Virus record (IMG/VR): IMGVR_UViG_3300044740_000023
Coordinates: 21,806 to 85,805 of that record
DNA length: 64,000 nt
Strand: one strand, 5' to 3'
DNA from: a virus
Lineage: Duplodnaviria; Caudoviricetes
Positions 863 through 60,984 of this stretch are shown here, piece by piece (the first letter of the stretch is position 1; each line of letters opens with the position of its first letter). Position numbers and translations under genes: made by a program. The notes below the pieces were generated by a model. That model saw only the letters and a program-made list of their open reading frames with translations, was not told the DNA's origin and searched no databases.

Positions 863-890
863 ATAACAGGACTCAAGTCAAGGAAAGGAC

Positions 891-1898
891 ATGACGACTC
901 ACACTCCCGGCCCGCTCACGGACATGGTTGCCGTCAGCGGCAAGTCCGGCGTCAAGCCGTTGGGCTACATCGTGTGGTTCAGCGTGCCCGACAAGCCGGT
1001 ACGACTCACGCATCTCAAGAAGTGTTGGGCGCTTGTCGGTGGACTGGACCCGAAAGTCCTTCCGCCCGATCCGCGCCCGCTGTACCTCTTCAAGCGTGCG
1101 ATGCGCGCTCAGGAGGGCAAGATTCGCAACGACGACGGCACGGTCACGGAGACCGACGTGAAGCCGATCAGCGAGGACCACGACATCTGCGACTACCAGA
1201 TCAGTCGCGTGACTCGTGACACGGCGAAACGTCAGGTGGACTACCCGAAGGCGATGCGCGTCACGTTCGACAAGCACAACGTCAACGACCCGCTCACGTT
1301 CTCCCCGTTCAAGGAAACTCCGCTGTCCGACATCCTGCCGATGCAGGAGAGCATCGAACAGTATTACGAGCAGAACGGCAAGATGATCGACGGGCGCAAA
1401 GTGCGCACGATGGTCCGCGAGTTCATCCGCGACGACGACAACCGCGCCGACCAGAAGGACGGCACGACCGGGCTGAGCGGCGAGAACCTGCGAGGCAAGG
1501 GCGGCGGCGTGTACTTCGTGCTGGAGAAGTACAAGGACAAGCTCGACGGTCTGGCGGAAGCGCTGCACGAGCTTCACCCGGATGGTTCGGCGTATCTCTA
1601 CATGGTCCCGCTGGCGGACGGCGCGAGCGAGCGCGAGCTTGTGCGGCGTCACCACGTCAACAACACCGTGAAAGAGATGCAGGAAGCGATGGCGGACGTT
1701 GGTGCGCTGCTGCGCGAAGATCGCAAGCAGGCCGTGCGCTCCGACCACGCGGCGTTCCATTGGCAGCGGTTGCAGGCGCTCCGCAGACGTGCTGCGGAGT
1801 ACAACGCGCTGCTGGAGGAGGAGCAGGAGGACGTGACTCAGATGTCCGCGATGCTGGAGAAACAGCTTCGCAAGCTCCCCGGCGCGGTGGCGGCATGA
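891..1898 (+). CDS. Phage protein, DUF6744-like, coiled-coil C-terminus
   Basis: SD AAGGAAAGGA; GENLRGKGGGVYFV motif recalled for this family; heptad-rich C-terminus. Confidence 0.45.
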   Translation: MTTHTPGPLTDMVAVSGKSGVKPLGYIVWFSVPDKPVRLTHLKKCWALVGGLDPKVLPPDPRPLYLFKRAMRAQEGKIRNDDGTVTETDVKPISEDHDICDYQISRVTRDTAKRQVDYPKAMRVTFDKHNVNDPLTFSPFKETPLSDILPMQESIEQYYEQNGKMIDGRKVRTMVREFIRDDDNRADQKDGTTGLSGENLRGKGGGVYFVLEKYKDKLDGLAEALHELHPDGSAYLYMVPLADGASERELVRRHHVNNTVKEMQEAMADVGALLREDRKQAVRSDHAAFHWQRLQALRRRAAEYNALLEEEQEDVTQMSAMLEKQLRKLPGAVAA

Positions 1899-2086
1899 GC
1901 CGTCGCCGCGTTGGATGGCAGGTCCCACGCACTCGTCCTATCGAGATTGAGTGCCCGCATTGCAAGGCCAAGCCGCTGCACCCATGCAAGACAGCGAGCG
2001 GCTGGCCCATTCGCGGCTACCACCAGAGGCGCAAGCACGAGGCCGCGTTCATCAACTACCTCGACGTAAAGGGAGGATTCCGCTGA
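1895..2086 (+). CDS. Small phage zinc-finger protein
   Basis: CPHCKAKPLHPC...GYH..R pattern; ATGA overlap with upstream stop. Confidence 0.6.
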   Translation: MSRRRVGWQVPRTRPIEIECPHCKAKPLHPCKTASGWPIRGYHQRRKHEAAFINYLDVKGGFR

Positions 2087-2532
2087 TGGCGGTACGAGTG
2101 AAGATCAGACGACTGAAGTTGCTGCAACTGCTGGAACAGGCCAAGCAGCGCAAAATCGCGGCACATGAGAAGCACATCGAGAAGTACAACGAGGCGCTCG
2201 CGAAAGCGCGCACAGAAATCGTCAAGGAGCTTCGCGCCAAGGCCGACGCAATCGAGGCTGGCGAGGATGTCTACCTTCGCAACGAATCGCGGGATAAGGA
2301 ACAACGCCCGCGCAAGGGACAGCGCTACGGCAGAACTGTCTACGTCAACATGCTCTGCTTCGACTCGAAGATCACGGTCCCGCGCAAGCCGGAACGCAAC
2401 GACAGCGAGATACACGAGATCGAGCGCTGCATCAAGCTGCTCGACGCGAGCGAAGAGGACACGATCACGGTCGGTGAGACCGACCTGCGCACCTACGGCA
2501 TCGGCTCCGCGCTCGCGCTGGAGGACGACTAG
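2086..2532 (+). CDS. Hypothetical protein (charged helical N-terminus)
   Basis: TGATG coupling at 2086; GGAGG upstream. Confidence 0.6.
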   Translation: MAVRVKIRRLKLLQLLEQAKQRKIAAHEKHIEKYNEALAKARTEIVKELRAKADAIEAGEDVYLRNESRDKEQRPRKGQRYGRTVYVNMLCFDSKITVPRKPERNDSEIHEIERCIKLLDASEEDTITVGETDLRTYGIGSALALEDD

Positions 2533-2736
2533 GTGCCGCGCAAAGCAGGCTACGTCTACGTCGAAGTCGATTGGGAGCTTGACGGCCACTCGATGCGAAG
2601 CGCAGGCGTGACACGGATCGTCGGCATTCCCATCGACGAGTTCAACGACAGGTTCAACGAGCCGCCCGAGGAGTGGGTCGCTGACTGGCTCAGCGACGAG
2701 CTTGGCTGGCTCGTCAAGGGATGGAGTTTCGCATGA
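2533..2736 (+). CDS. Hypothetical acidic protein
   Basis: Abuts upstream stop, overlaps next start. Confidence 0.5.
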   Translation: MPRKAGYVYVEVDWELDGHSMRSAGVTRIVGIPIDEFNDRFNEPPEEWVADWLSDELGWLVKGWSFA

Positions 2737-3785
2737 CCAGTACGTTCGCGGACATCGAGCGGTCGCTACGACAGCCGCCGCCGATGTCCGAAGCACCTAC
2801 GCTCGCGCCGCTCAATCTGGATGAGCGCAGCGGCAACGAGCTTCGCCCGGCGACCTTCGATGAGATGGTCGGGCAGACACGACTCAAGTCGCTTCTACAG
2901 CGCGTGGTCTCGGTCGCCAAGACGACCGGCAAACCGCTCGACCACATGCTGCTTGTCGGCAGCGCTGGCACCGGCAAGACCACCTTCGCGCTCGTGATCG
3001 CGCATGAACTCGGGACGCGCGTGTTCATGCTCAAAGCGCCCGTCGCGTTCAACATGTTCGAGGCGCTGGCGCAGGCGGCGCGACCCGGCGACGTGTGCGT
3101 GATCGACGAGATTCATCTCCAATGTTCTGGTGATCGTCGCGGACTCACCCAAGCTGCGGACCCCGAGGTTTTCTACCACGTCCTTGAGGACAAGCGACTC
3201 ATGGCCGAGAGCACGATGATCCCATTCCCCGACGTGACCTTCATCGGCTGCACAACTGACGCCGGACTCCTGCCAGAGCCGTTTCTGGACAGGTTCCCGC
3301 TCCAGCCGCAGCTTGACGAGTACACCGACGAGGAGATGGCGGTGCTGGCGAAGGCGAATGCCCGCTGGCTCGACATGCAGATCGACGACAGCGCGGCGCT
3401 GGTGTTCGCGCGCGCGAGTAGAGATGTGCCACGGCAGATCAACACCTACGTCCGCAACGCCCGGTCGCTCAACGTCGGCAGCATCGACGAGTGGGTGGCG
3501 AAGGAGATCGTCTGCTCGCTGAACAGCACGACTCTCGACGGGCTAACACGGGACATGCAGTTGATGTTGAAGTTCCTGCTGGCGTGCCGACGCGAAGATG
3601 CGAAAGGCAACGTCCGCTACCAGAGCGGTGTGAACAGCATCGCTACGGCGCTCGGCAAGTCGCGCGACTCGAAGGCGGTCGCGCTCTACGTCGAGCCGTA
3701 TCTCATCAAGGCGGGCTACGTCATCGTCACGCACGGTGGCCGCGCGCTCACGGACAGAGGCAGAGAAAGGGCAGAACAGCTATGA
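2733..3785 (+). CDS. ruvB: RuvB-like Holliday junction branch-migration AAA+ ATPase
   Basis: LRPATFDEMVGQ, LDHMLLVGSAGTGKTT (Walker A), DEIH (Walker B), TFIGCTT, DRF, C-terminal EPYLIKAG...GRALT; all hallmark RuvB blocks. Confidence 0.92.
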   Translation: MTSTFADIERSLRQPPPMSEAPTLAPLNLDERSGNELRPATFDEMVGQTRLKSLLQRVVSVAKTTGKPLDHMLLVGSAGTGKTTFALVIAHELGTRVFMLKAPVAFNMFEALAQAARPGDVCVIDEIHLQCSGDRRGLTQAADPEVFYHVLEDKRLMAESTMIPFPDVTFIGCTTDAGLLPEPFLDRFPLQPQLDEYTDEEMAVLAKANARWLDMQIDDSAALVFARASRDVPRQINTYVRNARSLNVGSIDEWVAKEIVCSLNSTTLDGLTRDMQLMLKFLLACRREDAKGNVRYQSGVNSIATALGKSRDSKAVALYVEPYLIKAGYVIVTHGGRALTDRGRERAEQL

Positions 3786-6358: not shown

Positions 6359-6464
6359 CTTGTACGGCGAGGAGGAATGCGAAGGCGCGCTCGAACGAGT
6401 GGCCGGACTCAAGCCAGAGCAAGTGCGCGCGGCGATGCAGCAGTACCACGCGAGCGACAACTAA
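6291..6464 (+). CDS. Small hypothetical protein
   Basis: SD GGAGGGAG before ATG at 6291. Confidence 0.45.
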   Translation: METPIQVKGPTKDLMLTVRMLVDLYGEEECEGALERVAGLKPEQVRAAMQQYHASDN

Positions 6465-6523
6465 CCCTCCACCAGTACATGACCGTGTGGTACGATGCCA
6501 CACATGAACACGGAAGGAGCCAC

Positions 6524-6955
6524 ATGGCTAAGAAACCGATGACGGAGCGCCAGAAGGAGATCAAGCGTCTACTCGACGGCGGCGCGGAGGTAGGCGAGAT
6601 CGCTGAGCTTCTGCACACCAGCGCGCAGGCCATTCACAACCAGATGTCACGCATGCGCGCGGCGGGGTATCTCCCGAAGGCCAAACGCGGAGGTCGGCGC
6701 GTCGCGGCGAGCGCGAGCGCGAGCGCGCCGACGCGCGATGTCGCCATTCCGCCGCCCGAGGTCGCAGCGCGGGCCGCGAGCAACGGCAGCCGCACGGTCG
6801 AGGAGCACTTGGCGACCGAGCTAAACGGCGTCATCACGCGGCTCGACGAGATCAGCAACGAGACAGCAGCACTCGCGGAGGAGGACGGGCGACTTCAGTC
6901 GCGGCGCGAGCGGCTGGAGGCCGCAACGAAAGCGCTGGCGGGCACCGCAGCGTAG
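6524..6955 (+). CDS. Helix-turn-helix DNA-binding protein with C-terminal coiled coil
   Basis: MTERQKEIKRLLDGGAEVGEIAELLHTSAQAIHNQMSRM (LuxR/sigma region 4-type HTH); SD AAGGAG. Confidence 0.7.
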   Translation: MAKKPMTERQKEIKRLLDGGAEVGEIAELLHTSAQAIHNQMSRMRAAGYLPKAKRGGRRVAASASASAPTRDVAIPPPEVAARAASNGSRTVEEHLATELNGVITRLDEISNETAALAEEDGRLQSRRERLEAATKALAGTAA

Positions 6956-7012: not shown

Positions 7013-8017
7013 ATGGACAACGGCAGCCTAATGGCGCGTTTCGAGCAAGAGCACATCGACCGACACAGCATCAGCAGTCAGCGGCGTCGCGTGACGCTGC
7101 AAACCCTCAAAGGACTGGCCGAGCGACTGGAAGGTCGCACGCTCGCAGAGCTAACGCCGTCCGACATCATGGCTTGGCAGGCCGCAGAGTTGAAGCGCGG
7201 TCTCGCACCCAACACGCTGCGCAACCGCGAAAGCATGGTGCGCGCGTTCCTGACTTGGGCACTCCAGGCTGGCGTCATCACGTTCGAGCAGTCAGCACGA
7301 CTCAAGTCGGTTCAACCGGCGCGGGGAACGCGCGTCAAAAAACCGCCGAAGCCCTACAAGCGCACCGAGGTCATTCGCCTGCGCGAGCAGATCGCGGAGA
7401 AGTACCCGGTCGCGCCCGTGAGGGGCCGTGGCTCGCTCGTCGTGCGCCGCTGGCTGGAAGGGCGCGCGAAGTACAGCGCCGTCGTGAAGCGTCACGCGCG
7501 GCGGCTCCAGCTTGAGGCGCAGGTATCGCTCGCGCTGGAGGAGGGGCTGCGCTTGCACGAGATACACCACCTGACGCTCGACGGGCTGTCGCCCGAGAAC
7601 GCGGCTGTAGTTGTGCAGACGGCGAAGCAGAAGCCCGGCGAGGTCCGGTATCGGGAAGTGCCGTGGACTGCCCACTCGCGCGCGCGCGTGAAAGAGTGGC
7701 TGGAGTTCCGGCGTCAGCTACCCGTCAAGCACGCCTCGCCGTGGCTCGCGCTCACGTCGGCAGACCCGCTCGCACCGCAGAGCTATGAATGGCTGCGCAA
7801 GTGCTTGCGTCCGTATTGCTGGCACCGGCTGCGTCACACCTTCGCTACGGAGCGCCTGCGCGCGGGCATGACGCTGGAGAAGGTGCAGGTGATGATGGGC
7901 CACGCACACCTTGAGCAGACGCTCGCCTACACGGAGATCGTCGGCTCCGATGTCACAACTCAAGCTGAGCGGTCAGAGAGCGAGTTCGCTCGCCTGATCG
8001 GACTGGAGGCAGCATGA
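7013..8017 (+). CDS. Tyrosine recombinase (XerC/integrase family)
   Basis: Catalytic set R (GLRLHEI), HxxR (HRLRHTFAT), H (MGH), Y (TLAY); SAM-like N-terminal NTLRNRESMVRAFLTW. Confidence 0.93.
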   Translation: MDNGSLMARFEQEHIDRHSISSQRRRVTLQTLKGLAERLEGRTLAELTPSDIMAWQAAELKRGLAPNTLRNRESMVRAFLTWALQAGVITFEQSARLKSVQPARGTRVKKPPKPYKRTEVIRLREQIAEKYPVAPVRGRGSLVVRRWLEGRAKYSAVVKRHARRLQLEAQVSLALEEGLRLHEIHHLTLDGLSPENAAVVVQTAKQKPGEVRYREVPWTAHSRARVKEWLEFRRQLPVKHASPWLALTSADPLAPQSYEWLRKCLRPYCWHRLRHTFATERLRAGMTLEKVQVMMGHAHLEQTLAYTEIVGSDVTTQAERSESEFARLIGLEAA

Positions 8018-8184
8018 ACACCGAGATGAAGGCACCGCCGTCGTGTCCGACGTGCGGGAAGGGGATGCACTACCACGGCGGCACCATCGGTTTCGTGTGC
8101 TGCGAGTGGAAGCTGCTCTATCGAGCGGGCGGTTGGTTCGACGCCAACGGCAAGCCCTTGTCCGACCGACGCCTGAAGGCGTGA
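8014..8184 (+). CDS. Small Cys-rich protein (56 aa, below the ORF-track cut-off)
   Basis: ATGA coupling; MNTEMKAPPSCPTCGKGMHY...CCEW. Confidence 0.35.
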   Translation: MNTEMKAPPSCPTCGKGMHYHGGTIGFVCCEWKLLYRAGGWFDANGKPLSDRRLKA

Positions 8185-8285
8185 CGCAAGTCGCGCGGTG
8201 CCGGTGCAGTACATGTCAGAAACACCTACCCACAACCCGACTAGGGGAGAGCAATGAAGCATCGTGAGCGAAAGGATGCCGCGAA

Positions 8286-9331
8286 ATGAAGGCAGCAGAT
8301 GTAAGAGAGGCGATCAAGCACAAGACCGCCGTCGCAATCGGTCGCGGCTTCGTCCGTGGCGAAGTGCCGACTACCTTGCGACAGGCCATCGTGCTGAAGA
8401 TCGACGGGCGCAAAGCGCGAGTCCGCTACGTGGACAACGGCACGCTTGGCAACGTCAACATTCGGGACATCTACAACGTCTGGCAGGAGTCCTACAAGAC
8501 CCGCGCGCCGGTACAGCCGAAGCCCGAAGGTCCGCAGGAGACTGAGGTCCGAAAGATTCCGCTTGGCGACATCTTTATCCCGTACTCGGATGAGTTGTTC
8601 GGCGGGAAACTCGGCTACCAGCGCAAGCGCACCGAAGAGGAAGCGATGAAGCTGGCGCTGAACCCGGACGTACACCGTTGGGAGTTCCCGCACGTCAGCG
8701 ACCGCACAACTACAGATGAGCCGTTGGGTCCGAATGGTGAGCGGTACGCGCTGCTCGACGGCGTGGCGCGCTACCACGCGCATGAGCTTCTTCTGCGCAA
8801 GGTGATGCGCTGCGAGGTTCACATCGGGCTGAGCCACGAGGCCGAGGCGAAGCTCTGCCACGATCTCTGGCGTGGGCGCAAACCGCACTCGTCGGGGCAG
8901 TCGTTTCAGGAGATGCTCGTCGCGGGCGATGCGATGCACGTCGCCATCGACAAGATTCTCAAAGGCGGCGGCTACCGGATCGGCGGCACGCGAAAAAGTC
9001 ACTCGGCTGTCCGCAGGCGGTCATCCGCGTGTACCTGCTCGATGAAAGCGGCGAGCACCTGCAAGCCGCACTCTGGCTGGCCGAACCGCTCGTCGAGGAG
9101 CGCAAACTGAAGGCTCCGATCTTGGAGGGACTTGCGTTGTTCCACAAAGAGTACGGGACTTCGGTCAACATGATGGCGTTCCGGCAGAAGCTCGCCAAAA
9201 CGTCCGTCACGGTCCTCGAAAAAGCGATGAGCCGTGCTGTTAGCTCTGGCAGTCAGGCCGATGAAGTCCGTACCGAGTGCATCAAGATATGGAACAAAGG
9301 CAAACGCGCCGAGGCGCGGCTCGCTGCGTAG
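8286..9331 (+). pseudogene. ParB/Srx-like (DUF6551-like) protein split by a -1 frame break near 8991-8998
   Basis: ORF 8286-9110 has YALLDGVARYHA and EAKL motifs; the -1 frame from CGA AAA AG reads KSLGCPQAVIRVYLLD... through ORF 9029-9331. Confidence 0.6.
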
Positions 9332-10800: not shown

Positions 10801-11057
10801 TGTCCGCCGACGAATACGTGACAACGGAGCCAGAGCCAGCGACGGTGATCTTCCGCCGCGCGAACGGCATCCCCGAGTGGAAGTCGCTTACGCGGCGATT
10901 GCGACAGGAGCGGCGGGAGTTCGCCGGGGAGTTGGAGCAACTGGCCGAGCAGGGCGTGATCTGCCGGGGCCAGGGGTACGGGTCGTATCCGATTCCGGTG
11001 TTCTCGAAGGCTGCCAGTCCGCCAGCTTCTCACGGAGCTTCTTCACAGAAGCCGTGA
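10800..11057 (+). CDS. Hypothetical protein, last gene of the + arm
   Basis: TAATG coupling, SD AGGAGG; overlaps the 3' end of the sigma ORF on the opposite strand. Confidence 0.45.
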   Translation: MSADEYVTTEPEPATVIFRRANGIPEWKSLTRRLRQERREFAGELEQLAEQGVICRGQGYGSYPIPVFSKAASPPASHGASSQKP

Positions 11058-11547
11058 CTTGAGTCCGGCTGAGACCCATCAGTTCACCGATCTCCTGCTG
11101 ATCGAAGCCCGCGACTAACAGCGCGGCGATCTCCTGCTCGCCCTGCGTGACCGTCGAAGGGAACGTGAAGCGGTCGAGCACGGCTGCGAACGTCTGGTCA
11201 TCGCTCTCGGACAGGAAGGCGAGCATGAAGTGGTCCGTGGTGAAGTGCTCGCCGTCCGCGAACACCTGCCCGTAGGTCAGAGTCTCGATGTACCCGATGT
11301 GCCCGACGCGCGCGTAGCGCGTGGCAGCGTTGCGCTTGAGGTCCTTCACCAAGTTGGCGACGCACGAGTAGATGTACGCGCGTTCCGACATGCTTGACCG
11401 CGCCGGATCGAACACACGTTTGCTCTTGATGATCTTCAGCCGAAGCTCTTGCTGCATGTCCTCTGGCTCCAGCCCGACCATCGCCGCGAACATGTGGGAG
11501 GTCTTGAACACGAGACCTTCGTAGGCGGCGATCCCCAAGTCGTCCAT
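10888..11547 (-). CDS. Sigma-70 family (ECF-like) RNA polymerase sigma factor
   Basis: Region 2: EDMQQELRLKIIKSKRVFDPAR...AYIYSCVANLVKD; region 4 HTH: EQEIAALLVAGFDQQEIGELMGLSRTQVTASVKKLREKL. Confidence 0.85.
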   Translation of the reverse strand: MDDLGIAAYEGLVFKTSHMFAAMVGLEPEDMQQELRLKIIKSKRVFDPARSSMSERAYIYSCVANLVKDLKRNAATRYARVGHIGYIETLTYGQVFADGEHFTTDHFMLAFLSESDDQTFAAVLDRFTFPSTVTQGEQEIAALLVAGFDQQEIGELMGLSRTQVTASVKKLREKLADWQPSRTPESDTTRTPGPGRSRPARPVAPTPRRTPAAPVAIAA

Positions 11548-50018: not shown

Positions 50019-52105
50019 GTCGCGTTGTCAGGGGCGGGGTCCTCGATCAGCGGCTCGCTGACGAAGCCCCACCGCAGCACCATGTCGTTCGCGCGATTCA
50101 AGTCGTACTGCGGTTCGGAGAAGCGCAGCGCCTTGGCGACGATGGCCTCATCCCCGAGTCGCGTACCGACAACCATGCGCAGGCCGTCGTCCAGCTTGAC
50201 CATGTGCAGCGCCGACACGTTGACGCCGACGTTGACCGGCACGATGATCGAGCGCCCGTTGCGCAGCGGTGCGCCGCCCTCGATGGCCTCGCGCTCGATC
50301 TCGGTGACGTAGCCGAGCGCGGCCTCGCCCTCGATCTCCGCGAGGATCGCGTAGGTGGTCTCACCGAAGTAGCTCACGTCGTCGCCCTCGACGATGGCCT
50401 TGACGGTCTCGCCCGAGTTGCGCTGGATCACGCGGCGCGGGCGGAAGTTGTCGCGGCCCTGGCCGGGGCTGTCCTTGCCGCGCCCGTTGTTCGAGGACGT
50501 GCCTTTCGGACGGCCTTCGTTGTTGTCCTGCGGTTCGCCGTCGTTGGAGAACGGGACGCTCGCGGGCATCAGGATGTCGTCGTCGCCGCGCGCAAGCTCG
50601 CGCTCGCGCTCCGCAAGCGCCGCGTCGTAGTCGTAGCCGAGCGCCTCGACCAGCCAGCGCCGGGGCACGTCGCCTCGGTCGCGGGCGTTGAGCAGGTTCG
50701 ACCAGAAGTCCTTGGCACCCGCGAGGACGATCTTCGCGCCCCATATCGACGGCGCGCCCTCGGTGAAGGTCGAGCGGTTGCGGTTCGCCGTTTCGTCGTA
50801 GAACGTCGCCTGCGCGTGGCGGATCATCTTCGCGCGGTCGCCGCCGACCACGCGCGCGAGCAGTTCCATCTCGTTGAGCGCGCCCTGGTTGCCCGCGTCG
50901 CTCGTGACCTGCTCGTTCTGTCGGAGCAGGCCCATGCTGATCTTGCGCCCGACCATCCGGCGCTTCGCCGGGTCGAGCATGTTGGTCAGGTCCGGCGAGA
51001 TGATTTCGATGGTCAGCCGGTGATCCCCGACCATGACGCCCGAGCGCGAGGCGTGCGTGACCTGTCCGACGAGGTTGTCGATCTCGGGCTGCTGCGCCGG
51101 GAGGTTGTCCGTGCCCTTCTTGGCGACGACGATGTAGCTCGCGCCGCCTTGCAGGAAGGCGTAGTCGAGCAGGTTGAGCAGGCGCTTGGCCTCAAGCAGC
51201 GCGAAGTTGCGCGTCAGCGGCGGGCGCGCGTAGGGCTGCGCGCCCTTGGGCATCGAGGAACGGTGGACCATGCGCTTGTTGAGCAGGTAGACCGTTTTGC
51301 CGCGCGTGTTGGGATCGCTGTCGGTGTACGGGATTTCCTTGCGCCCGACGAACAGCGCGGCCATGACCGGCTCTTCCATCGCCATGATCGCGCGCGTGCG
51401 CCCCGGCGTCTTGGGCGAGAGGAATGCGTCGAGCCAGCGTTTGATGTTGATGTCGTCGCTGTGAAAGGCGAGTTCGCCCTCGTTCAAGATGTCGTTGGTG
51501 ATGACGCGGATGTTCTCGGCGGGGAGCACGCCGACGTGCGGCACCTGTAGCTGAGCCTGCACCGGCTCCTTGCTCTTCAGCGGGAAATACTGCATCCGCT
51601 GCCGCGTGAAGAGCGTGATCGTCGTGACGCTGCCCGCGATCAGGAACTCGCGGTACATCTCTTCCATCACCGACACGAGGTCCATCGCGGTCGGCGCGGT
51701 CATCTGGTTGAAGAACTCCAGCGTCTTTTCGTCGCGGTGCTGGTTCTGGAGACCTTCCCCGAACGCGACGGCGTTGCAGAGACCGAGCGTCCCGGCCACG
51801 TCGTCGTCGGTGTCCGCGAGCGCGCGCGCAAGCTCGATCTCTTGGATCACGTTGCCCGGCGTTTTGAACGGCTGCCGCGCGAGCATCGAGGTCTGCACGT
51901 TCGAGTACATCTGGAACGTGTTGGGACGCGCCAACTGGAGTCCCGCGTACTCGACCCACTTGTCCTCGATCACCTGTCGCACCTCGCTGTCAGACAGGTC
52001 GGTGCGGTTGTCGATGATCGCGGACACCGGCTGCGAGCCGGGACCGAGGTACTGCGCGCGCTGAGGCGGCTGCGCGACGGGCGGAAAGATCGGCTCCTCG
52101 CTCAT
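50015..52105 (-). CDS. Portal protein
   Basis: 696 aa between terminase and protease; helical clip/stem pattern. Confidence 0.75.
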   Translation of the reverse strand: MSEEPIFPPVAQPPQRAQYLGPGSQPVSAIIDNRTDLSDSEVRQVIEDKWVEYAGLQLARPNTFQMYSNVQTSMLARQPFKTPGNVIQEIELARALADTDDDVAGTLGLCNAVAFGEGLQNQHRDEKTLEFFNQMTAPTAMDLVSVMEEMYREFLIAGSVTTITLFTRQRMQYFPLKSKEPVQAQLQVPHVGVLPAENIRVITNDILNEGELAFHSDDINIKRWLDAFLSPKTPGRTRAIMAMEEPVMAALFVGRKEIPYTDSDPNTRGKTVYLLNKRMVHRSSMPKGAQPYARPPLTRNFALLEAKRLLNLLDYAFLQGGASYIVVAKKGTDNLPAQQPEIDNLVGQVTHASRSGVMVGDHRLTIEIISPDLTNMLDPAKRRMVGRKISMGLLRQNEQVTSDAGNQGALNEMELLARVVGGDRAKMIRHAQATFYDETANRNRSTFTEGAPSIWGAKIVLAGAKDFWSNLLNARDRGDVPRRWLVEALGYDYDAALAERERELARGDDDILMPASVPFSNDGEPQDNNEGRPKGTSSNNGRGKDSPGQGRDNFRPRRVIQRNSGETVKAIVEGDDVSYFGETTYAILAEIEGEAALGYVTEIEREAIEGGAPLRNGRSIIVPVNVGVNVSALHMVKLDDGLRMVVGTRLGDEAIVAKALRFSEPQYDLNRANDMVLRWGFVSEPLIEDPAPDNAT

Positions 52106-52166
52106 CCTCGCCTAATATACGCTGACGCCAGGACTAAAATTGCGCTAAAGCGGGTAGAAACTCGGC

Positions 52167-52941: not shown

Positions 52942-54716
52942 ACCGGCAGCGCAGCGGGGTCGATGTGCATGCCGCCGCCGACACCCGGCGTCAGGTCCAC
53001 GGCGCGCTCCATGACCGGGTTGTGGTCCTGCACGATGGCGTCCTCGACTTCCTCGGACTTCGCGGCCATCGCCATCGCGCGCATCGAGTCGAGCATGTGG
53101 AAGGCGGACGGCTTCTTGCGGATGTGCGGCGATCCCATCGCGCGCACGCGCTGCTCTGTCTCGCCCTGCATGTCCTTCACGAGTCCCTGGTGAAACGGCA
53201 GCATGAGGTACGTCGAGTCAACCCAATTCCGCAGGTAGCGCGTGCTCGCTTCGATCATCGTCATCTCGGCCACGTAACGGATGCCGCCCGTCCACTTGTC
53301 ACGTTCCTCGCGCACGATGTTGCCGTACTGGTCGAACATCTTGTCGCCCTGCCTGCTCACGTAGCTCTCGTCCACGGCGACCGGCACCTTCGCGTTGAAG
53401 GTGTAACCGCGCATCACCTGTCGAAAGTGGTCCGGGCACACCTCGTCATCTTCCATCCCCTGAAGGATCGGCAGGCCGAGGCCGGTGATGTCCATGCCGA
53501 ACGTCTTGAGATGCGCGCCGTACTTCATGTCGATCCGGTAGCACACTTCGCGAATCTGTCGCTCGCGGAAGCGCCAGAGGTGCAGCATGCGGATCATCTT
53601 CAGCCGGTTGCGCTTCTCCTTGTCCTTCCCGACCGTGAACAACGTGATTACAGTCGGGTCGTTCACGAGGCCGATGTCCATGCCGCAGTAGACATCGCCG
53701 GGGAGATCGGGCAGGTCGAGCACGGCAGCGATGTCGCCCTCGGGACCGATGGTCTTGTCCACGTCCTCGACCATCAACTGCTGCTCCATGAACTCGACCG
53801 TGTTGTAGTGACTCTCGGCGTCCTGGTCGAGACAGGCCATCAGGCGGGCGGTAACGAAGAACTGCGAGAGCGCCGTGCCCGGCTCGCCAAGCACGTTGCG
53901 CCGGTAGTCGGGCGAGTGAACGCCGCCGTACATCGCGGCAGCGGCCTGCTTCTCGGCTTTGTTCCAGCCGGGGCGCATGATCGCGGTGATCTGCGTCACC
54001 TTGAACTCGCCTGACTCCGCGAGTCGTTCAAAGCGCCCGCCAGCCGCGCCCGAGTGGACACCGTACAGGTGGTAGGTGAAGTCGGGATTACCGTCGCGGT
54101 CGAAGCGATCCTTTTCGACGGTCTCGTGAACCTCGGTGAAGCCCTTGGGCGGGTAGTCCTGCGCCTCGTCGATCATCAGGTCTTGCTCGTGTGAACCCTT
54201 CACGCCGAGACCGGAGAGCTTCGGGATGCGCCCGAGAATGCGCGTGCCGTCCGCAAAGTCCACCTGGAACGGCTTGTGGGTGAACCCCGTCTTTTGCTGG
54301 TCCTGCTTGAGAAATTCGCGCGTGAGCCGAGTGCCGACGATGCGTTGCTCGATCTGCTGCGTGACACCCTCCAAGTGAATCAACTCGGGTGCCGTGACGA
54401 GCATGTCCATGCCCATGCGCCGGAAGGCGTGGCTGACCGCGCGCGCGCGGATGGATTCGGTCTTGCCGACAGCGCGTGCGCACGGGAATGCGGCGTAGCC
54501 GACAGGCGGGCGGAAGAGAGGGTATTGGTAATCTCTTACCCGATACGCGCCCGCATAGTCGTGGTTGGTGGGGTCCTCGAAGAGCAACTCCGCGCAGAAG
54601 ATCGGGTCGGCCAGCATCGCGAGGAGCAGGAAGTCATCGCTGTCCAGTCTCCATGTGCCTTCTATTACGTCGAACTTCTTGAGACCAGTAATGATCCCCA
54701 ATTCAGACTCGGCCAT
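52938..54716 (-). CDS. terL: Terminase large subunit
   Basis: Walker A ARAVGKT, Walker B LMIDEAQ, nuclease GMDIGLVND and HMLDSMR; SD AAGGAG. Confidence 0.92.
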   Translation of the reverse strand: MAESELGIITGLKKFDVIEGTWRLDSDDFLLLAMLADPIFCAELLFEDPTNHDYAGAYRVRDYQYPLFRPPVGYAAFPCARAVGKTESIRARAVSHAFRRMGMDMLVTAPELIHLEGVTQQIEQRIVGTRLTREFLKQDQQKTGFTHKPFQVDFADGTRILGRIPKLSGLGVKGSHEQDLMIDEAQDYPPKGFTEVHETVEKDRFDRDGNPDFTYHLYGVHSGAAGGRFERLAESGEFKVTQITAIMRPGWNKAEKQAAAAMYGGVHSPDYRRNVLGEPGTALSQFFVTARLMACLDQDAESHYNTVEFMEQQLMVEDVDKTIGPEGDIAAVLDLPDLPGDVYCGMDIGLVNDPTVITLFTVGKDKEKRNRLKMIRMLHLWRFRERQIREVCYRIDMKYGAHLKTFGMDITGLGLPILQGMEDDEVCPDHFRQVMRGYTFNAKVPVAVDESYVSRQGDKMFDQYGNIVREERDKWTGGIRYVAEMTMIEASTRYLRNWVDSTYLMLPFHQGLVKDMQGETEQRVRAMGSPHIRKKPSAFHMLDSMRAMAMAAKSEEVEDAIVQDHNPVMERAVDLTPGVGGGMHIDPAALPV

Positions 54717-55134
54717 GCCATCTCCTTAGTGACGCACGGCGACGATTCTCGGCTGGTGTCACGCACTCCAGATGCGTAACCTCGACGCACATCCGCTCAA
54801 AGCAGAGATGGTCGATCTCGTGACCGGGCGGCACCGGACCATGTAGTCGTTCCCAAGCGACTACATGCGCTTTCCGCTGACCGTTCGGCGTTTGCGTGCG
54901 ACCATACCCCTTGTCATCTGGCTTACCCTGCCAGATGAGACAGGGCGTCGCATAGCCACGCTGCTCCCGAATAGGGGCTGGCACCCGCTGTCGTCCTCGT
55001 CGCTCCGGTTCACCCACCGAGACACCGCGACGAATGTACCCACTACGTTTGCGACAACTCTCGCTGCACCACTTGCGCGGCGGTCCCGTTCGCGCACGCG
55101 GCAAGGTCGCATTGCATCCGTGGCATTCAGCCAT
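54703..55134 (-). CDS. HNH endonuclease with N-terminal zinc finger
   Basis: CHGC...WCSESC; CLIWQG...GYG...AH..AW...IDHLC...C.EVTHLECVT.AEN. Confidence 0.88.
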   Translation of the reverse strand: MAECHGCNATLPRARTGPPRKWCSESCRKRSGYIRRGVSVGEPERRGRQRVPAPIREQRGYATPCLIWQGKPDDKGYGRTQTPNGQRKAHVVAWERLHGPVPPGHEIDHLCFERMCVEVTHLECVTPAENRRRASLRRWHGRV

Positions 55135-55288
55135 CGAGGAGATACCACCTCCCATCCGCTTCCTTCTTCCACGTCCGGTCGCGCCAATGCGCGAGCACGA
55201 CCTTCGGGCCAAGCTCGCCCACGCGCAGCTTCATTTCCTCGCCGGACAGCGACTCGGGCAGATCATCCTGCAAATCCGCGTCAGTCAT
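55127..55288 (-). CDS. Small hypothetical protein
   Basis: Fills the gap in the operon. Confidence 0.4.
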   Translation of the reverse strand: MTDADLQDDLPESLSGEEMKLRVGELGPKVVLAHWRDRTWKKEADGRWYLLDG

Positions 55289-55766
55289 GCCGTGACTGTA
55301 GTCGTGCCATAGCCTGATCGACGACCTCCTGAAAGCCGCCATGCGAGCCGCCGCCGAGCATGTCGCGCAACTGCTCCAGCGCGCGCACCATCTCGGGATC
55401 GGAGTGCGTGATCGGCCCGCCGATTTCGACGGCGCGCCGCAGGTACTCAGCGCCCTTCTCGGGCGAGAGCAGCCCGCCCTCGGGCACGCAGCCGTGCTCG
55501 CACTCGAAGCCTTCGACCAGTCCGTACAGGCGGCAGAGCATCGGTCGCACCGAGTACACCGAGCAGCGGTTGTTGACGAGCATGTTGCAGGTGATCCCGT
55601 TGCAGCCGAGCGTGTGGCCGCTCGCCTCCTCCACACGCAGGCGCTCGCGCACGGACATCCCTATCGGGCCGCACGAGTCGAAGCACAGCCCCTTGCACGG
55701 CGAAGGCGGTAGCTCCGCGTACAGCGCATCGAGAGCAGCGTCAACTCTGCGTGGGTTGCGTGCCAT
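55281..55766 (-). CDS. YkgJ-family cysteine-cluster (Fe-S/Zn) protein
   Basis: CKGLCFDSCG...C.ML..NRCSVYSVRPMLCRLYG. Confidence 0.75.
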   Translation of the reverse strand: MARNPRRVDAALDALYAELPPSPCKGLCFDSCGPIGMSVRERLRVEEASGHTLGCNGITCNMLVNNRCSVYSVRPMLCRLYGLVEGFECEHGCVPEGGLLSPEKGAEYLRRAVEIGGPITHSDPEMVRALEQLRDMLGGGSHGGFQEVVDQAMARLQSRHD

Positions 55767-56706: not shown

Positions 56707-57368
56707 TAGAGCCTCCCTGTAAAGACCTTGGCCTTCTCGCGAGCGAACTGCTTGTCCACCTCTTCAAGCCGGTCGCATTCACTCCTCAGCCAGTCGAGAA
56801 TTGTCTTGGGTGTGATGTCGTGATACCTGCGGTCCTCGGCGTCAGCCGTGTAGAGCAGTCGCAGCCGCACACGAAGCTCGTTGACGACACGTTCGTATTC
56901 GAGCAGTCGTTGTGAGATGTGAACGCCAAGCGTGTGCGCGGCGCGCTTGAGATCGCGCACGTAGGAATCGACGGTGTGCTTGCCGCCTTTCTCGCGAGTC
57001 GCTTTGTCGATCCCGAGTTGCTTCTCCAACGCACGAAGCTCGCCGCTCGCGCGCATCATCGTCTGCTGGAAGGCGGCGAGTTCGGCGGCGTCGATTTCCA
57101 CGCGGCGGTAGCGGCCAGTCGGCACGTCGTTTTCGTCAACCTCTGGCTCCATGCCGTTGACCTGCATCTGGCAGCGGTAGATGATGACCTGCTGCTGGAG
57201 GAGCAACCCGAGCGTGACGAGATCGTTCTGCTTCATCAGCGCGTACTCGTCGGTGTACTTCTCCAGCGACTCGTTCCAGAACTGCACCTCGTCGGGCGTC
57301 TGAAGGTGGAGCGTGCCGCCTGCCGGGAGGCCGACTTCGAGTGTCGGCGTTACTTCGGTAGTTGACAT
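56706..57368 (-). CDS. Putative terminase small subunit
   Basis: Helical protein with RALEKQLGIDKATR, upstream of terL and next to an HNH gene; positional inference. Confidence 0.4.
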   Translation of the reverse strand: MSTTEVTPTLEVGLPAGGTLHLQTPDEVQFWNESLEKYTDEYALMKQNDLVTLGLLLQQQVIIYRCQMQVNGMEPEVDENDVPTGRYRRVEIDAAELAAFQQTMMRASGELRALEKQLGIDKATREKGGKHTVDSYVRDLKRAAHTLGVHISQRLLEYERVVNELRVRLRLLYTADAEDRRYHDITPKTILDWLRSECDRLEEVDKQFAREKAKVFTGRL

Positions 57369-57730
57369 CTCGGGCACCTCCCTTCGGCGTGCAGCGTGTA
57401 GCGCCGTTCGACGCCCGTGTAGTGCCGTTCGAGGTAGTTCTGCCCCGCCTCTTTGAGCACTTCCCACACGAAGCAGATGTTGTCGTCGGTCAACTCGCTC
57501 GTATCGACCTTCAGCGTGCAGGCGGTCTCCTCGGCGTGACAGCGGTCGCACAGCCGCAGCGCGTTGCGCGGGTCGTACAGCCGGTGGACGAGGCCGCGTT
57601 TCTTGAGCGTCTGTTTGGCGACGACGTGGTGGGCGTCGAACTCGCCGGGGTTGCCGCAGACGGCGCATACCCGCTGGAACTGCGCCTCAGCGCGGAAGCT
57701 GGCCGGGTTGCTGATCGAGGTAGTCGCCAT
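57350..57730 (-). CDS. HNH endonuclease (packaging-associated type)
   Basis: CAVCG...AHHVV...NALRLCDRCH. Confidence 0.8.
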   Translation of the reverse strand: MATTSISNPASFRAEAQFQRVCAVCGNPGEFDAHHVVAKQTLKKRGLVHRLYDPRNALRLCDRCHAEETACTLKVDTSELTDDNICFVWEVLKEAGQNYLERHYTGVERRYTLHAEGRCPRCQLPK

Positions 57731-58175
57731 AGAGTCTCGCGAGCAGCGCCTCGCCTAGTCGCGCTTTCGCGCTTTCAAGATACGGCTCCAGTCGGAACAC
57801 ATGCACGGTATCCATCGCCCGGTAGGGCCGGTGGGTGCGTTTCTTCCAATATGCGCGAAACTCGTCGTAGCTCGCGAAGCCCTCGCGCATCAGCGAGTGG
57901 TGGTTGCCCGCGATGTCGTGCAGGCGCTCGACGCGGTGCTCGACGAGGACCATCAGCGCCTCGCGCAGCGCCGCAGTCCTGGCCGGTGGGATCGCGTACA
58001 ACACGACTGGAGTCGGGGTGTCGATGACCGCAGCCAGCGCCCCCGAGGGCGGCGTGCGGAACTCCTGCTTGTGCCCGTGGACGAGCGCCGCCCAATCCGC
58101 GTAGGGCGCGCGCAGGAACAGCGTCCGCAGCGTGCGTTGTCTCGCGCTTGGAGGTCGCCTGCCGCCGTCGATCAT
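57687..58175 (-). CDS. Putative ASCH/PUA-like domain protein
   Basis: LFLRAPYADWAALVHGHKQEFR resembles the ASCH N-terminal G.K..E.R motif. Confidence 0.4.
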   Translation of the reverse strand: MIDGGRRPPSARQRTLRTLFLRAPYADWAALVHGHKQEFRTPPSGALAAVIDTPTPVVLYAIPPARTAALREALMVLVEHRVERLHDIAGNHHSLMREGFASYDEFRAYWKKRTHRPYRAMDTVHVFRLEPYLESAKARLGEALLARLYGDYLDQQPGQLPR

Positions 58176-59351: not shown

Positions 59352-59369
59352 CTGATGACATGACTGAAG

Positions 59370-59729
59370 TCAGGCGGTCAGCGTAGCCGGGTCTCCACCG
59401 AGCCTGACGATCTCCGCGATGAGCCGCTCGACCCGCTGCTCCAGCGACGCGATCTTCCTCCCGTTGTCCTCGATGGTCTCGCGCAGTTGATCGTTCTCCT
59501 CCTTGCCATCCATGAGTTGCTGGCGCAACACCTGCATCGCGCCCTTCATGGCATTGATGGTCTCGGTCGCGGCGTGCGTCGAGATCGCTTCGATTTCCGC
59601 CTTCGCCTTCGCCTCGTCTGCGGGGCGCGGGTGACGCTTCGCCCACGCGCGCCACACAAAAGGGACGATGCCGCCACCCCCGACTATCGCGAGGAGGATC
59701 GCGGAAAGCGTTGCTGCGTCTATCTGCAT
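59370..59729 (-). CDS. Membrane-anchored coiled-coil protein (lysis-cassette type)
   Basis: N-terminal TM (LSAILLAIVGGGGIVPFVW) plus heptad C-terminus. Confidence 0.6.
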   Translation of the reverse strand: MQIDAATLSAILLAIVGGGGIVPFVWRAWAKRHPRPADEAKAKAEIEAISTHAATETINAMKGAMQVLRQQLMDGKEENDQLRETIEDNGRKIASLEQRVERLIAEIVRLGGDPATLTA

Positions 59730-59732: not shown

Positions 59733-59948
59733 CTACCCCCGGTGAGGCGGGCCGACTAGCTCGTTGAGCGTCGCCTCAAACGTCCTGCGGGCGGTCTCTT
59801 TCGCGATCCGCAGATCGCGGTCTTTCTGGACCCGGGGAGGCACACGACGAATGTAGGCGACGAAGAAGCAGCCGAGGCCGATTCCGACGACAGCGGCTAG
59901 TGCGATGAGAAGTCCTGTCGCTGCGGAGATGGCGAGCACATCCAACAC
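59733..59948 (-). CDS. Single-TM membrane protein
   Basis: Hydrophobic residues 1-32, basic C-terminus. Confidence 0.55.
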   Translation of the reverse strand: MLDVLAISAATGLLIALAAVVGIGLGCFFVAYIRRVPPRVQKDRDLRIAKETARRTFEATLNELVGPPHRG

Positions 59949-59949
59949 C

Positions 59950-60585
59950 TCACTTGCTAACGAGGGTCCGGCAATCGAGTAGCGGGGTTGGTGCTACCGA
60001 TTTTTCAAGCTGATCGTATTCGGTCAACTTTGCGGGGAGTTCGTTGCCGATGACATGACCCTGCTTGTCCTTTACCACCGTGAACTGCCGCCAGAAACGT
60101 AGTTTCTGGTTCTCGATGGCGAAAAACGCTTCAAAAGCGCGCTTTTCGGCAGCGCTCTTCGGCTTGATCGTCTGACCGGGCAGCGCCTTCTTCGGCGTGA
60201 TCGCCTGCTGCAAGAAGTAGAGGATGATCTCCAAGTCGAAGGCCCGCGCGTTCCCCTGCGGGCGCGCGGTTCGAGCGACTTCGCAGTTGGACAGCGCGTT
60301 CTTGTGCGCGAGCGCGCGCGTGTCGTGCTGGCTTTCGGTGGAGAGGACGTAGGTGACGGGGATGCAGAGGGCGGCGACGACGACAGCCGTGACGATGGCC
60401 GTGGTGATGCGCTCATGGCGGAAGCGCTCTGTCAGGTCGGCGTCGCGGAGCTTTTCCCCGGTGTACTCGACTGCCTTGACGAAACCGACCGCGAGCGCCT
60501 TCCGGACCTCGTGCGGAAGCTCAATGCCCGCCTCCTCGAAGGCTGCGCCGAACGCCCGCTCAAGTTCAGCCTCTCCGTGGGGCAC
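59950..60585 (-). CDS. Membrane protein with extracellular Cys pair
   Basis: TM ITTAIVTAVVVAALCIPVTYVL; NCEVAR...LDC. Confidence 0.55.
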   Translation of the reverse strand: MPHGEAELERAFGAAFEEAGIELPHEVRKALAVGFVKAVEYTGEKLRDADLTERFRHERITTAIVTAVVVAALCIPVTYVLSTESQHDTRALAHKNALSNCEVARTARPQGNARAFDLEIILYFLQQAITPKKALPGQTIKPKSAAEKRAFEAFFAIENQKLRFWRQFTVVKDKQGHVIGNELPAKLTEYDQLEKSVAPTPLLDCRTLVSK

Positions 60586-60600
60586 CTCTCGAATGCTACC

Positions 60601-60984
60601 TCACGCCTCGACTGAAGTCGCGGCTTCCTCCGCTGGCGATTCCTTGGCCGTTGGCGTCGGGCTGTTGAAAGCCCACACGTTCTGGCCGTCGAAGAAGAAG
60701 TAGCGCTCGCAGTCGCACCCCTCGACCGGCTCGGGATGACAGGGCGTGATCGCGCCGAGGATCGGCACCGTGGGCATGTGCTTGCAAGGACAGGACACGT
60801 CCGCCACCTGATCGCCCTCGCTGTCGGTGTTGAGAATCCAGAACTGCGGCGGCACGAGCTTCGGCGGGACGTGTTCGGCCATCCAGAGCGCGAAGCCGAT
60901 GCCGTGGCCCATGCGCTTCATGTAGGTCTGCGGGCGACCTATCCGGTCCTCCTTGGGCATCAACTCGGGTATCTCCCGGCTCAC
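60601..60984 (-). CDS. Cys-rich hypothetical protein
   Basis: CPCKH...CH...CDCERYF; GTGA coupling. Confidence 0.5.
   Translation of the reverse strand: MSREIPELMPKEDRIGRPQTYMKRMGHGIGFALWMAEHVPPKLVPPQFWILNTDSEGDQVADVSCPCKHMPTVPILGAITPCHPEPVEGCDCERYFFFDGQNVWAFNSPTPTAKESPAEEAATSVEA

Follow-up and report, generated by a model that had tools for sequence, protein, structure and literature searches.

The closest published case to the element described here is the dispersed repeat of the Cluster O mycobacteriophages, a 17-bp dyad (TGTTCGGNNNCCGAACA, of 7-3-7 architecture) present in 34 copies in Corndog, for which the authors predicted a dimeric binder with a function outside transcription initiation (Cresawn et al. 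2015, PMC4351075). The present element is the inverted repeat RACTNNAGTY, found in a window of 64 kb (bases 21,806-85,805) of the 85,805-bp IMG/VR virus record IMGVR_UViG_3300044740_000023, the genome of a Caudoviricetes phage from a soil metagenome (64.5% G+C, CheckV completeness estimate 98%), designated G000; coordinates are those of the window unless stated otherwise. Like the Cluster O repeat, it is a short inverted repeat with a variable centre that occurs more than 30 times in a high-G+C siphovirus-type genome of 70-86 kb, partly within genes and mostly away from promoters: the 42 copies in G000, 32 of them genic, are evenly spread throughout the genome and are not tied to promoters. 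It differs in architecture (4-2-4 within a 26-bp dyad), in the word itself, with no detectable sequence relationship, and in placement, three quarters of the copies being intragenic against about one third to 60% in Cluster O, a share that varies there with the choice of start codons. For a deep family, the present analysis describes turnover, mutual spacing and dialects, none of which was reported for Cluster O, and it gives firmer evidence of selection, spacing and dialects than exists for earlier dispersed dyads. What is new is the word, its geometry and the phage family; dispersed dyad repeats as such are already known from a small number of phage groups, Cluster O being an example. On balance the copies are probably docking sites on double-stranded DNA for one sequence-specific reader protein of predicted two-fold symmetry, a reading drawn from sequence comparison.

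An initial annotation, made from the letters of the window alone, had listed 21 copies of GACTNNAGTC where about one was expected. Every coordinate and central dinucleotide was found to be right (CA/TG in 12 copies, GA/TC in four, GG in three, AG and GT in one each), and dinucleotide shuffles agreed with the chance level, giving a mean of 1.2 and a maximum of 4 copies, with none of the 100 shuffles reaching 21. The whole record holds 22 copies, the extra 21.8 kb contributing one, and only 2 of the reversed control pattern. The inverted arrangement with a spacer of 2 is alone enriched, other spacers between 0 and 15, everted repeats and direct repeats giving 0-3 copies against 22, and the tetramers GACT and AGTC occur at their expected frequency. 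In an unbiased scan of gapped palindromes this one came top by far; its core ACT-NN-AGT is present 45 times against 6.7 expected, and 42 of these 45 copies have R...Y flanks, which gives the working definition RACTNNAGTY. In this form 39 copies lie in the window and 42 in the genome, against 1.2 expected under a second-order Markov model. The excess over codon-preserving shuffles that the annotation had anticipated was also found. Synonymous codons were permuted within genes, genic and intergenic copies being separated by a gene call based on G+C at third codon positions (GC3) and the 10 intergenic copies of G000 being held fixed; the shuffled genomes had 5.8±0.9 copies of GACTNNAGTC (22 observed) and 12.1±1.5 of RACTNNAGTY (42 observed), and when the fixed copies are set aside, 32 genic copies stand against about 2 expected. 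The one-mismatch copies previously named (2110, 11575, 33883 and 40644) exist and all belong to RACTNNAGTY. The decamer that had been taken for the full motif is merely the core of a wider one, RACTNNAGTY within a dyad of about 26 bp.

Relatives of G000 were sought in IMG/VR. A scan with a single protein returned none and an alignment-based scan was needed, which yielded 36 loci; the ten long records among them (G001-G010) were analysed in full, and the family comparison covers these 11 genomes of metagenomic phages of about 80 kb. The 696-amino-acid protein encoded at 50015-52105 has hundreds of relatives on metagenomic contigs of about 80 kb. Megablast with 20 kb of G000 gave no nucleotide match to GenBank phages, tblastn with the 696-amino-acid protein gave a single remote match, and protein matches to GenBank phages were remote only. 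A literature search for the exact motif returned unrelated primers only. The motif is present in 8 of the 11 genomes (G000, G001, G003, G004, G005, G007, G008 and G010) and missing from G002, G006 and G009. The GACTNNAGTC form itself is rare in the relatives; RACTNNAGTY occurs 52 times in G005, 27 times in G001, 15 in G003, 14 in G004 and 12 in G007, and codon-preserving shuffles support the excess in G005 and G001 as well. A closer relative (L091, whose DUF6744 protein is 74% identical) has 8 copies in the 17.5 kb counted, against 0.54 expected.

The lineages differ at position ±2 of the dyad, where T/A, mixed or G/C dialects were found. The hybrid RACGNNAGTY is in excess in G004, G005, G007 and G008 (38 against 11.9±2.4 in G008), and the G..C form RACGNNCGTY in G008 (32 against 13.2±3.2) and G010 (40 against 21.3±2.6); in G000 the hybrid class is weakly enriched (15 against 10-11). 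The sites of G007 have almost exclusively CC/GG as their centre. An outer A/T pair, described below, is present at 72-92% of the variant sites of G008 and G010 against 22-28% in the controls G002 and G009, which places the variant sites in the same family as the T/A sites. Outer A..T and AC-N4-GT in register are found 57 times in G008 (4.5 expected), 42 times in G010 (6.3) and 57 times in G005 (6.3). G002, G006 and G009 have an excess of no form of the motif, and scans of these motif-free genomes for a replacement palindrome or repeated word gave nothing comparable. On a tree built from three conserved proteins, motif-bearing genomes fall into both major clades, each of which also has motif-free genomes nested within it, and the same word with its outer A/T recurs across genomes that are only 30-60% identical in their proteins. 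The simplest history would be that the motif is old and has been lost and has shifted dialect several times. Because the dialect of the word differs between lineages, the reader and its sites appear to evolve together. A further variant with the core C changed to T (RATTNNAGTY) is in excess in G000 (16 against 3.2), G001 (6 against 0.8) and G005 (5 against 0.2) and may represent decaying or tolerated sites.

When the sites are aligned, a weaker, two-fold symmetric conservation is seen to reach 12-13 bp from the centre, the most conserved bases lying within ±2-5. Among the outer positions the strongest signal is an A lying 8 nt before the A of ACT, mirrored by a T (±12 from the dyad centre), which is present at 46-75% of sites in the T/A-dialect genomes against 22-28% in motif-free genomes. 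The flanks show no base-pair covariation; complementarity of left and right flanks equals that of partners shuffled between sites, and the flanks therefore reflect a sequence preference and not a stem. When twelve sites were folded as RNA of the sense strand, energies of -1.4 to -12 kcal/mol (median about -5 to -6) resulted, only 2 of the 12 clearly surpassing shuffled sequences (z below -3), and an Rfam search of the window matched no family. A structured RNA or single-stranded DNA hairpin was rejected on these grounds (no compensatory flank changes, weak folds, no Rfam family), and the same observations indicate a duplex-DNA site of about 26 bp. Since the site is two-fold symmetric, a dimeric reader of double-stranded DNA would be the simplest reading. 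Each site is a dyad of about 26 bp, built of the core RAC(T/G)-NN-(A/C)GTY and, 12 bp out from the centre, an A/T; from this geometry, each half of the reader would touch two patches about 8.5 bp apart. A 26-bp probe and the natural dialect variants could serve to fish out the reader.

It could be argued that the copies are a non-functional by-product of composition, codon usage, restriction avoidance or a small mobile repeat, or that they form hairpins in RNA or single-stranded DNA. G000 does avoid palindromes to an extreme degree, which distorts oligonucleotide statistics, and the sites at 22538 and 44524 are able to form stable hairpins. Of the 40 testable 6-bp palindromes, 31 reach no more than 10% of expectation (observed/expected: CTCGAG 0/63, GTCGAC 0/62, GCCGGC 0/56, GGCGCC 1/68), and interrupted palindromes are avoided too (CCTNAGG 0/16, GGTNACC 0/17, GACNNNGTC 1/37, GAANNNNTTC 0/19). 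This avoidance accounts for one peculiarity of the sites: the palindromic centres CG, GC, TA and AT are missing because CTCGAG, CTGCAG and CTTAAG are absent genome-wide, and a non-palindromic centre was accordingly rejected as a property of the motif. It does not account for the motif itself, as other RAC-N4-GTY classes are at or below expectation and the deficits are too small to yield some 40 extra T..A copies. Explanations of this kind are scarcely credible: the codon-preserving and Markov controls fall short by more than 15-fold, no indels are found at the sites, the flanks do not covary, hairpins are mostly weak, and word and outer A/T recur between genomes of 30-60% protein identity.

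The sites of the window are as follows, with the strand of the gene in brackets where a gene is concerned.

870-879: GACTCAAGTC, intergenic, 11 nt upstream of the start (891) of the DUF6744 gene; a G005 copy lies 41 nt upstream of the orthologue
2111-2120: GACTGAAGTT, within open reading frame (ORF) 1951-2532 (+)
2881-2890: GACTCAAGTC, RuvB-like gene 2721-3785, read as R-L-K-S; other codons in orthologues
6891-6900: GACTTCAGTC, 3' end of winged helix-turn-helix (wHTH) ORF 6377-6955, 67 nt upstream of the recombinase gene
7299-7308: GACTCAAGTC, tyrosine-recombinase gene, amino acids 111-114; position also occupied in G001 and G004
11056-11065: GACTTGAGTC, sigma-like gene 10888-11781 (-)
11575-11584: GACTGAAGTT, the same sigma-like gene 10888-11781 (-)
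12339-12348: AACTCCAGTC, gene 12293-12679 (-)
12668-12677: GACTGAAGTC, codons 1-4 of gene 12293-12679 (-); a G003 copy lies 20 nt upstream of the orthologue
13332-13341: GACTTGAGTC, gene 12702-13544 (-), read as T-Q-V
15382-15391: AACTGAAGTC, ORF 15136-15894 (-)
17588-17597: GACTTGAGTC, PD-(D/E)XK nuclease gene 16634-18034 (-)
18218-18227: AACTCCAGTC, region of small ORFs between 18034 and 18531
18560-18569: GACTTGAGTC, 3' end of gene 18531-19652 (-)
21861-21870: GACTGGAGTC, ORF 20571-22427 (-), or intergenic under GC3-based gene calls
22538-22547: GACTGGAGTC, gene 22160-23854 (-), read as T-P-V; best extended dyad of the window (11-bp arms)
24829-24838: AACTGGAGTT, gene 24489-24986 (-)
25678-25687: GACTCTAGTT, gene 24952-27291 (-)
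27774-27783: AACTGTAGTC, gene 27465-27857 (-)
29117-29126: AACTGGAGTT, gene 28264-33507 (-), of 1747 amino acids
30679-30688: AACTTGAGTC, the same 1747-amino-acid gene (-)
31384-31393: GACTGGAGTT, the same 1747-amino-acid gene (-)
32057-32066: AACTTGAGTT, the same 1747-amino-acid gene (-)
33341-33350: GACTCAAGTC, the same 1747-amino-acid gene (-); one of two antisense CA copies
33883-33892: GACTCAAGTT, gene 33849-34703 (-)
38765-38774: GACTTGAGTC, 5' end of gene 38450-38791 (-); about 20 nt upstream of the 13-mer GCGTATATTAGGC
40644-40653: GACTTGAGTT, between genes 39948-40382 and 40705-41634
42505-42514: GACTGAAGTT, gene 41631-44306 (-)
44524-44533: GACTTGAGTC, intergenic
45800-45809: GACTTGAGTC, 3' end of gene 45773-46690 (-)
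46232-46241: GACTAGAGTC, gene 45773-46690 (-)
48325-48334: GACTTGAGTT, gene 47722-48348 (-), amino acids 5-8; position also occupied in G003
50012-50021: GACTCAAGTC, stop/start junction of genes 50015-52105 and 49698-50018; 1 nt upstream of the 13-mer GCGTATATTAGGC
51933-51942: AACTGGAGTC, 696-amino-acid gene 50015-52105 (-), amino acids 55-58; a rare GGA codon where orthologues have GGC/GGT
55294-55303: GACTGTAGTC, 3' end of gene 55281-55766 (-)
58005-58014: GACTGGAGTC, gene 57687-58175 (-), read as P-T-P-V; position also occupied in G001, G003 and G007
59362-59371: GACTGAAGTC, over the stop codon of gene 59370-59729 (-), reaching 8 nt downstream
60610-60619: GACTGAAGTC, 3' end of gene 60601-60984 (-)
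62891-62900: AACTTGAGTT, gene 62749-63210 (-)
8183-8192: GACGCAAGTC, possible weaker member with a hybrid core and both outer A/T positions
37296-37305: GACGACAGTC, possible weaker member with a hybrid core and both outer A/T positions

The genic copies (32 of 42, 76%) are read in all three frames, and the different readings cited earlier (RLKS, TQV, RLES) were found as stated. Half of them (16 of 32) are in the frame ACT|NNA|GTY, which spells Thr-x-Val with two rare codons, against 17 of 210 background CTNNAG words in that frame, and the motif spells 16 of the proteome's 95 Thr-x-Val tripeptides. The rare codons, the use of all frames and the synonymous differences from orthologues together establish selection on DNA and not on protein, as the initial annotation had maintained. 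When the genic sites of G000 were projected on orthologues, the segments were of equal length and usually encoded similar residues in common codons; equal-length, collinear orthologues that differ by substitutions only show that sites arise by substitution and not by insertion. A mobile palindromic repeat (REP, MITE or RPE type) was rejected on the same basis, there being no indels at the sites. Only 0-2 of 9-17 motif positions are shared with any one relative, and three positions are shared at all: in the recombinase gene (7299), in gene 57687-58175 (58005) and in gene 47722-48348 (48325). At 58005 (amino acids 54-57) the Thr-Pro-Val codons are ACT-CCA-GTY in G000, G001, G003 and G007 and ACA-CCC-GTC in the motif-free G002, the encoded peptide P-T-P-V being identical. 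A few sites recur close to the 5' ends of the same genes among relatives. The conservation in relatives expected by the annotation thus holds for the word, kept across 8 of the 11 genomes, and fails for site positions, which are mostly replaced. Selection acts mainly on the possession of sites and not on their location: many sites are maintained, which are made by point mutations, mostly at synonymous positions, and are rapidly replaced. The case adds figures in favour of a word whose copy number and spacing are under selection in opposition to codon bias, which turns over rapidly and whose dialects drift apart within a large, entirely uncultured soil-phage family.

The copies also avoid each other. 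In G000 no two copies are closer than 329 bp (P 0.0003), gaps within the window have a coefficient of variation of 0.67 (P 0.006), and the minimum gaps across the genomes tested are 329, 197 and 620 bp (P 0.0002-0.0024); the mean gap in G000 and G005 is about 1.3-1.8 kb. The left 21.8 kb of G000, composed mostly of small genes without homologues in the relatives, holds only 3 of the 42 copies. Sites are spaced, at least about 0.2-0.6 kb apart, across the conserved part of the genome. Many evenly spaced, position-independent and renewed sites are what is expected of loading or nucleation sites, unlike promoter operators, which are clustered and positionally conserved, and the pattern points to a genome-wide protein-DNA system distinct from such operators. 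The docking sites may serve a process that needs one site per domain along the chromosome and whose benefit would grow with the share of the chromosome covered; a protein loaded or nucleated at the sites could silence, compact, protect or in some other way organise the phage DNA. Dispersed palindromes act as loading sites for proteins working at a distance in the KorB/O_B system of the IncP plasmid RK2 and in ParB-parS. The present sites are alike in this respect, and one site per domain would explain their mutual spacing; they differ in number (40-100 against the 12 O_B sites of RK2) and in form, O_B and parS being uninterrupted palindromes of 13-16 bp, and six-frame searches of five motif-bearing genomes (G000, G001, G005, G008 and G010) found no ParB_N domain (PF02195).

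Even, non-clustered sites with a mean gap of about 1.3-1.8 kb would suit a per-segment signal used by the recombination-dependent replication module of the phage (DnaB-type helicase, PD-(D/E)XK exonuclease, RuvB-like ATPase, tyrosine recombinase), as recombination hot spots or as sites of entry and priming, in the manner of a two-way Chi or an Okazaki-scale initiation signal. Number would matter and position would not, a palindrome works from either direction, and the genes of the module are universal in the family, with a Xer-type recombinase (Phage_int_SAM_1 and Phage_integrase domains, catalytic R..HxxR..Y intact as HRLRH...Y) in all 11 genomes. The 12-2-12 geometry with AAC/GAC at -5 to -3 recalls the layout of the crossover sites (hix/gix) of small serine invertases, with 26 bp, two imperfect 12-bp arms and an asymmetric 2-bp centre. 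However, the asymmetric centre is explained here by the avoidance of CTCGAG, CTGCAG and CTTAAG, and no resolvase domain (PF00239) was found in six-frame searches of five motif-bearing genomes, in which control genomes were positive. Xer/dif sites have conserved arms of 11-13 bp around a poorly conserved centre of 6-8 bp, as is normal for tyrosine recombinases, and number one or few per replicon; here conservation peaks at ±2-5 and not in the arms, and the sites number 40-100. All three motif-free genomes equally have the recombinase, helicase and nuclease, no primase was recognised, and dozens of active sites in direct orientation would delete genome segments. A role in recombination or replication is for these reasons unlikely.

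A different comparison, made in the initial annotation, was that with the stoperator network of the Cluster A mycobacteriophages (L5 gp71 type; PMC6550527, PMC9283540). Stoperators are asymmetric 13-14-mers read by a monomer, mostly intergenic and by definition orientation dependent. The likeness lies in dozens of genome-wide sites for one protein, in a lineage-specific sequence and, in G000, in an orientation that follows transcription. A prophage repressor would then block elongation in an orientation-dependent manner as an immunity network, and a tyrosine integrase and small helix-turn-helix (HTH) proteins are present. Of the 12 CA copies, ten have GACTCAAGTC in the sense strand, as had been noted, given that 11056 lies in a conserved minus-strand sigma-like gene; 33341 and 50012 are the exceptions. 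Among the 32 genic copies of G000, 27 show the C of the central dinucleotide in the sense strand, against 18 expected from a frame-aware background (P ~5e-5). The coding-strand bias claimed for the motif therefore stands for G000, but G001, G003 and G004 show it weakly, marginally or without significance, and G005 (14/35) and G007 (4/10) do not show it, so that orientation dependence, the defining property of a stoperator, does not appear to be a trait of the family. The statement that about half of the copies lie at gene starts, stops or junctions was overstated: no more than 35 nt separate 12 of the 42 copies from a gene end, against 15% for random positions, and for copies pooled from six genomes the count is 50 of 162 against 15% expected, an enrichment of about two-fold. 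A 13-mer, GCGTATATTAGGC, occurs in four exact minus-strand copies (38732-38744, 49141-49153, 49998-50010 and 52110-52122; 0.2 expected) and is a putative late promoter; a dyad site is found upstream of two of the four, at 1 and about 20 nt, and a few sites beside gene starts and beside this putative promoter may also regulate locally. The analogy fails, however, on symmetry (both inner and outer positions form a dyad), on location, 76% of the copies being intragenic, and on the lack of a conserved orientation rule; the copies avoid each other and are not clustered at promoters. No gp71-like repressor was recognised, and the HTH ORFs at 6377, 60981 and 63688 are each missing from some motif-bearing genomes, though a fast-evolving repressor may have escaped detection. 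Bacterial assemblies gave matches to contigs of metagenome-assembled genomes (MAGs) only and no integrated copy of the phage, and many relatives are complete genomes with terminal repeats. An immunity network of this type is very unlikely, and stoperator behaviour is possible as a local property of G000 only.

The motif appears to be specific to this phage family. No enrichment of RACTNNAGTY was found in three MAGs containing contigs of relatives or in 301 evenly sampled Actinomycetota genomes (11 of which are unpublished and contribute aggregate counts only: G133, G014, G187, G239, G061, G252, G031, G161, G095, G281 and G101). The bacterial genomes reach no more than about 36 copies per Mb, and at most about threefold the control pattern, whereas the phages have 490-770 per Mb. 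The three matches in bacterial assemblies are MAG contigs of 6, 8 and 83 kb whose taxa are inconsistent, which suggests mis-binned phage contigs; the bins of relatives are one Solirubraceae-type (Solirubrobacteraceae), one Actinomycetota, and others of Polyangia and Cellvibrionaceae. HIP1 of cyanobacteria, Chi and DNA uptake sequences are words of cellular genomes that phages share, Chi and the uptake sequences being asymmetric. The present word resembles them in copies made by point changes within genes, in a density that is kept while positions are not, and in lineage dialects; it differs in being in excess in no sampled bacterial genome.

Palindrome avoidance bears on whether the reader is a host protein, for which the phage would gather sites in order to exploit or titrate it, for example as an anti-defence decoy or a protective coat in hosts with abundant restriction systems. 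Such a reader would fit the lack of a phage gene that matches the motif distribution. The motif-free G002 and G006 are the two least palindrome-avoiding of the genomes (4 of 40 and 6 of 39 palindromes avoided, against 31 of 40 in G000), and in 22-kb loci of further relatives every motif-dense locus is without GTCGAC. On the other hand, the correlation between avoidance and motif over the 11 genomes is non-significant (Spearman rho 0.57, p 0.066) and is broken by G009, which avoids 18 of 38 palindromes and has no motif. Dialects and genome-specific centre preferences suggest a fast-evolving partner, and the word is in excess in no bacterial genome sampled; a host reader is decidedly unlikely.

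If the docking sites are read by a phage protein, its gene might be expected among those that accompany the motif. The initial annotation had proposed a dimeric phage protein, which agrees with the two-fold symmetric site, but none of the candidates it named tracks the motif: the wHTH at 6377 is found in G002-G005 only, the HTH at 60981 in G001-G003 only, the HTH at 63688 as weak matches in G001 and G003 only, and the 'ParB-like' ORF 8286-9110 is without a Pfam ParB match and occurs in none of the ten relatives. A segment of the latter (+, 274 amino acids; IPLGDIF...YALLDGVARYHA) resembles by eye the N-terminal motif of ParB/Srx and has no Pfam or NCBIfam match. The best match to the motif profile is the adjacent trio MoxR-VWA-DUF6744, present in 8 of 8 motif-bearing genomes and absent from G006 and G009; an exact one-sided probability of about 0.055 (hand calculation) makes it only a lead. 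DUF6744 was modelled with a predicted local distance difference test (pLDDT) value of 88.

Several observations weigh against the reading as docking sites. Phyletic profiling over the 11 genomes found no G000 gene that is present in all motif-bearing and in no motif-free genomes, the trio is intact in the motif-free G002, and the DUF6744 model has no informative fold match (none with Foldseek against the PDB, and only generic C-terminal three-helix bundles with VIA-align). A host-encoded reader explains the lack of a matching phage gene equally well. A conservation peak within 5 bp of the centre is commoner for nucleases, methyltransferases and recombinases than for helix-turn-helix repressors. 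It is nevertheless tempting to speculate about a genome-tag system, in which the reader, possibly linked to MoxR-VWA-DUF6744, loads at the spaced dyads and marks or shields the chromosome in restriction-rich hosts, with dialects (T/A to G/C at position ±2) switching together with it; this extension may hold but probably does not. If the link to restriction pressure or to the trio were true, it would represent a new kind of phage self-marking or protection.

The compact core near the dyad centre is also as found for type II enzymes, and the copies could be targets of a DNA-modifying or nicking enzyme, comparable to the localized nicks of T5-like or tf-like phages or to a methyltransferase site. 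G000 encodes an ATP-dependent ligase, HNH endonucleases and a possible GIY-YIG domain protein (L079:16948-17310, the equivalent of window 16948-17310), whose Pfam match is below the curated cut-off. Such a role is highly improbable: recognition by an enzyme alone leaves the 15-35-fold enrichment and the mutual spacing unexplained, nicking both strands at a palindrome would cut the genome apart, the IMG/VR relatives compared do not share the ligase, and no methyltransferase was recognised among the proteins searched. The HNH ORFs lie at 54703-55212 and 57350-57730; the latter is present in nearly all relatives and adjoins the gene with the best-conserved dyad position.

Pfam, PHROGs and NCBIfam searches of about 80 ORFs left most without a match, and PDB sequence searches with the ORFs at 4297, 12702 and 18531 gave nothing usable. 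The recognisable genes include the ATP-dependent ligase, a MoxR ATPase, a VWA protein, DUF6744, a RuvB-like ATPase, a DnaB-type helicase and the PD-(D/E)XK nuclease, and further two sigma-like proteins, HNH endonucleases, a lysozyme and small HTH proteins. ATP-dependent DNA ligase, MoxR AAA+ ATPase, VWA, DUF6744 and RuvB-like ATPase form a conserved row (genome bases 17811-22538 and window 891-3785) in which no ruvA was recognised; the ligase is found in G000 and L091 only. Ku was not found in G000, G001, G002, G005 or G008. In L091 a Ku gene stands beside the ligase, a non-homologous end-joining pair as in mycobacteriophage Corndog, and the presence of Ku is a further likeness to Cluster O.

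Two known operators were considered and rejected. The LexA (Cheo) box CGAAC-N4-GTTCG does not fit, ±6 not being G..C and G000 having mostly GAC and not GAAC, and only the A..T-flanked subset could fit; the HspR HAIR half-site (ACTCAAG) is ruled out by the variable centre. Repeated words of other kinds were noted in two relatives. In G003 (L062-L065) the 12-mer TCGCCAGACTCC occurs 7-12 times (e.g. at 13564, 16898 and 25423 of G003); it is not the dyad motif, its opposite strand, GGAGTCTGGCGA followed by ATG, being a conserved ribosome-binding leader at gene starts. In the motif-free G006 (L070-L073), in which there is little palindrome avoidance, CGCCGGCG occurs 41 times against 7.5 expected.

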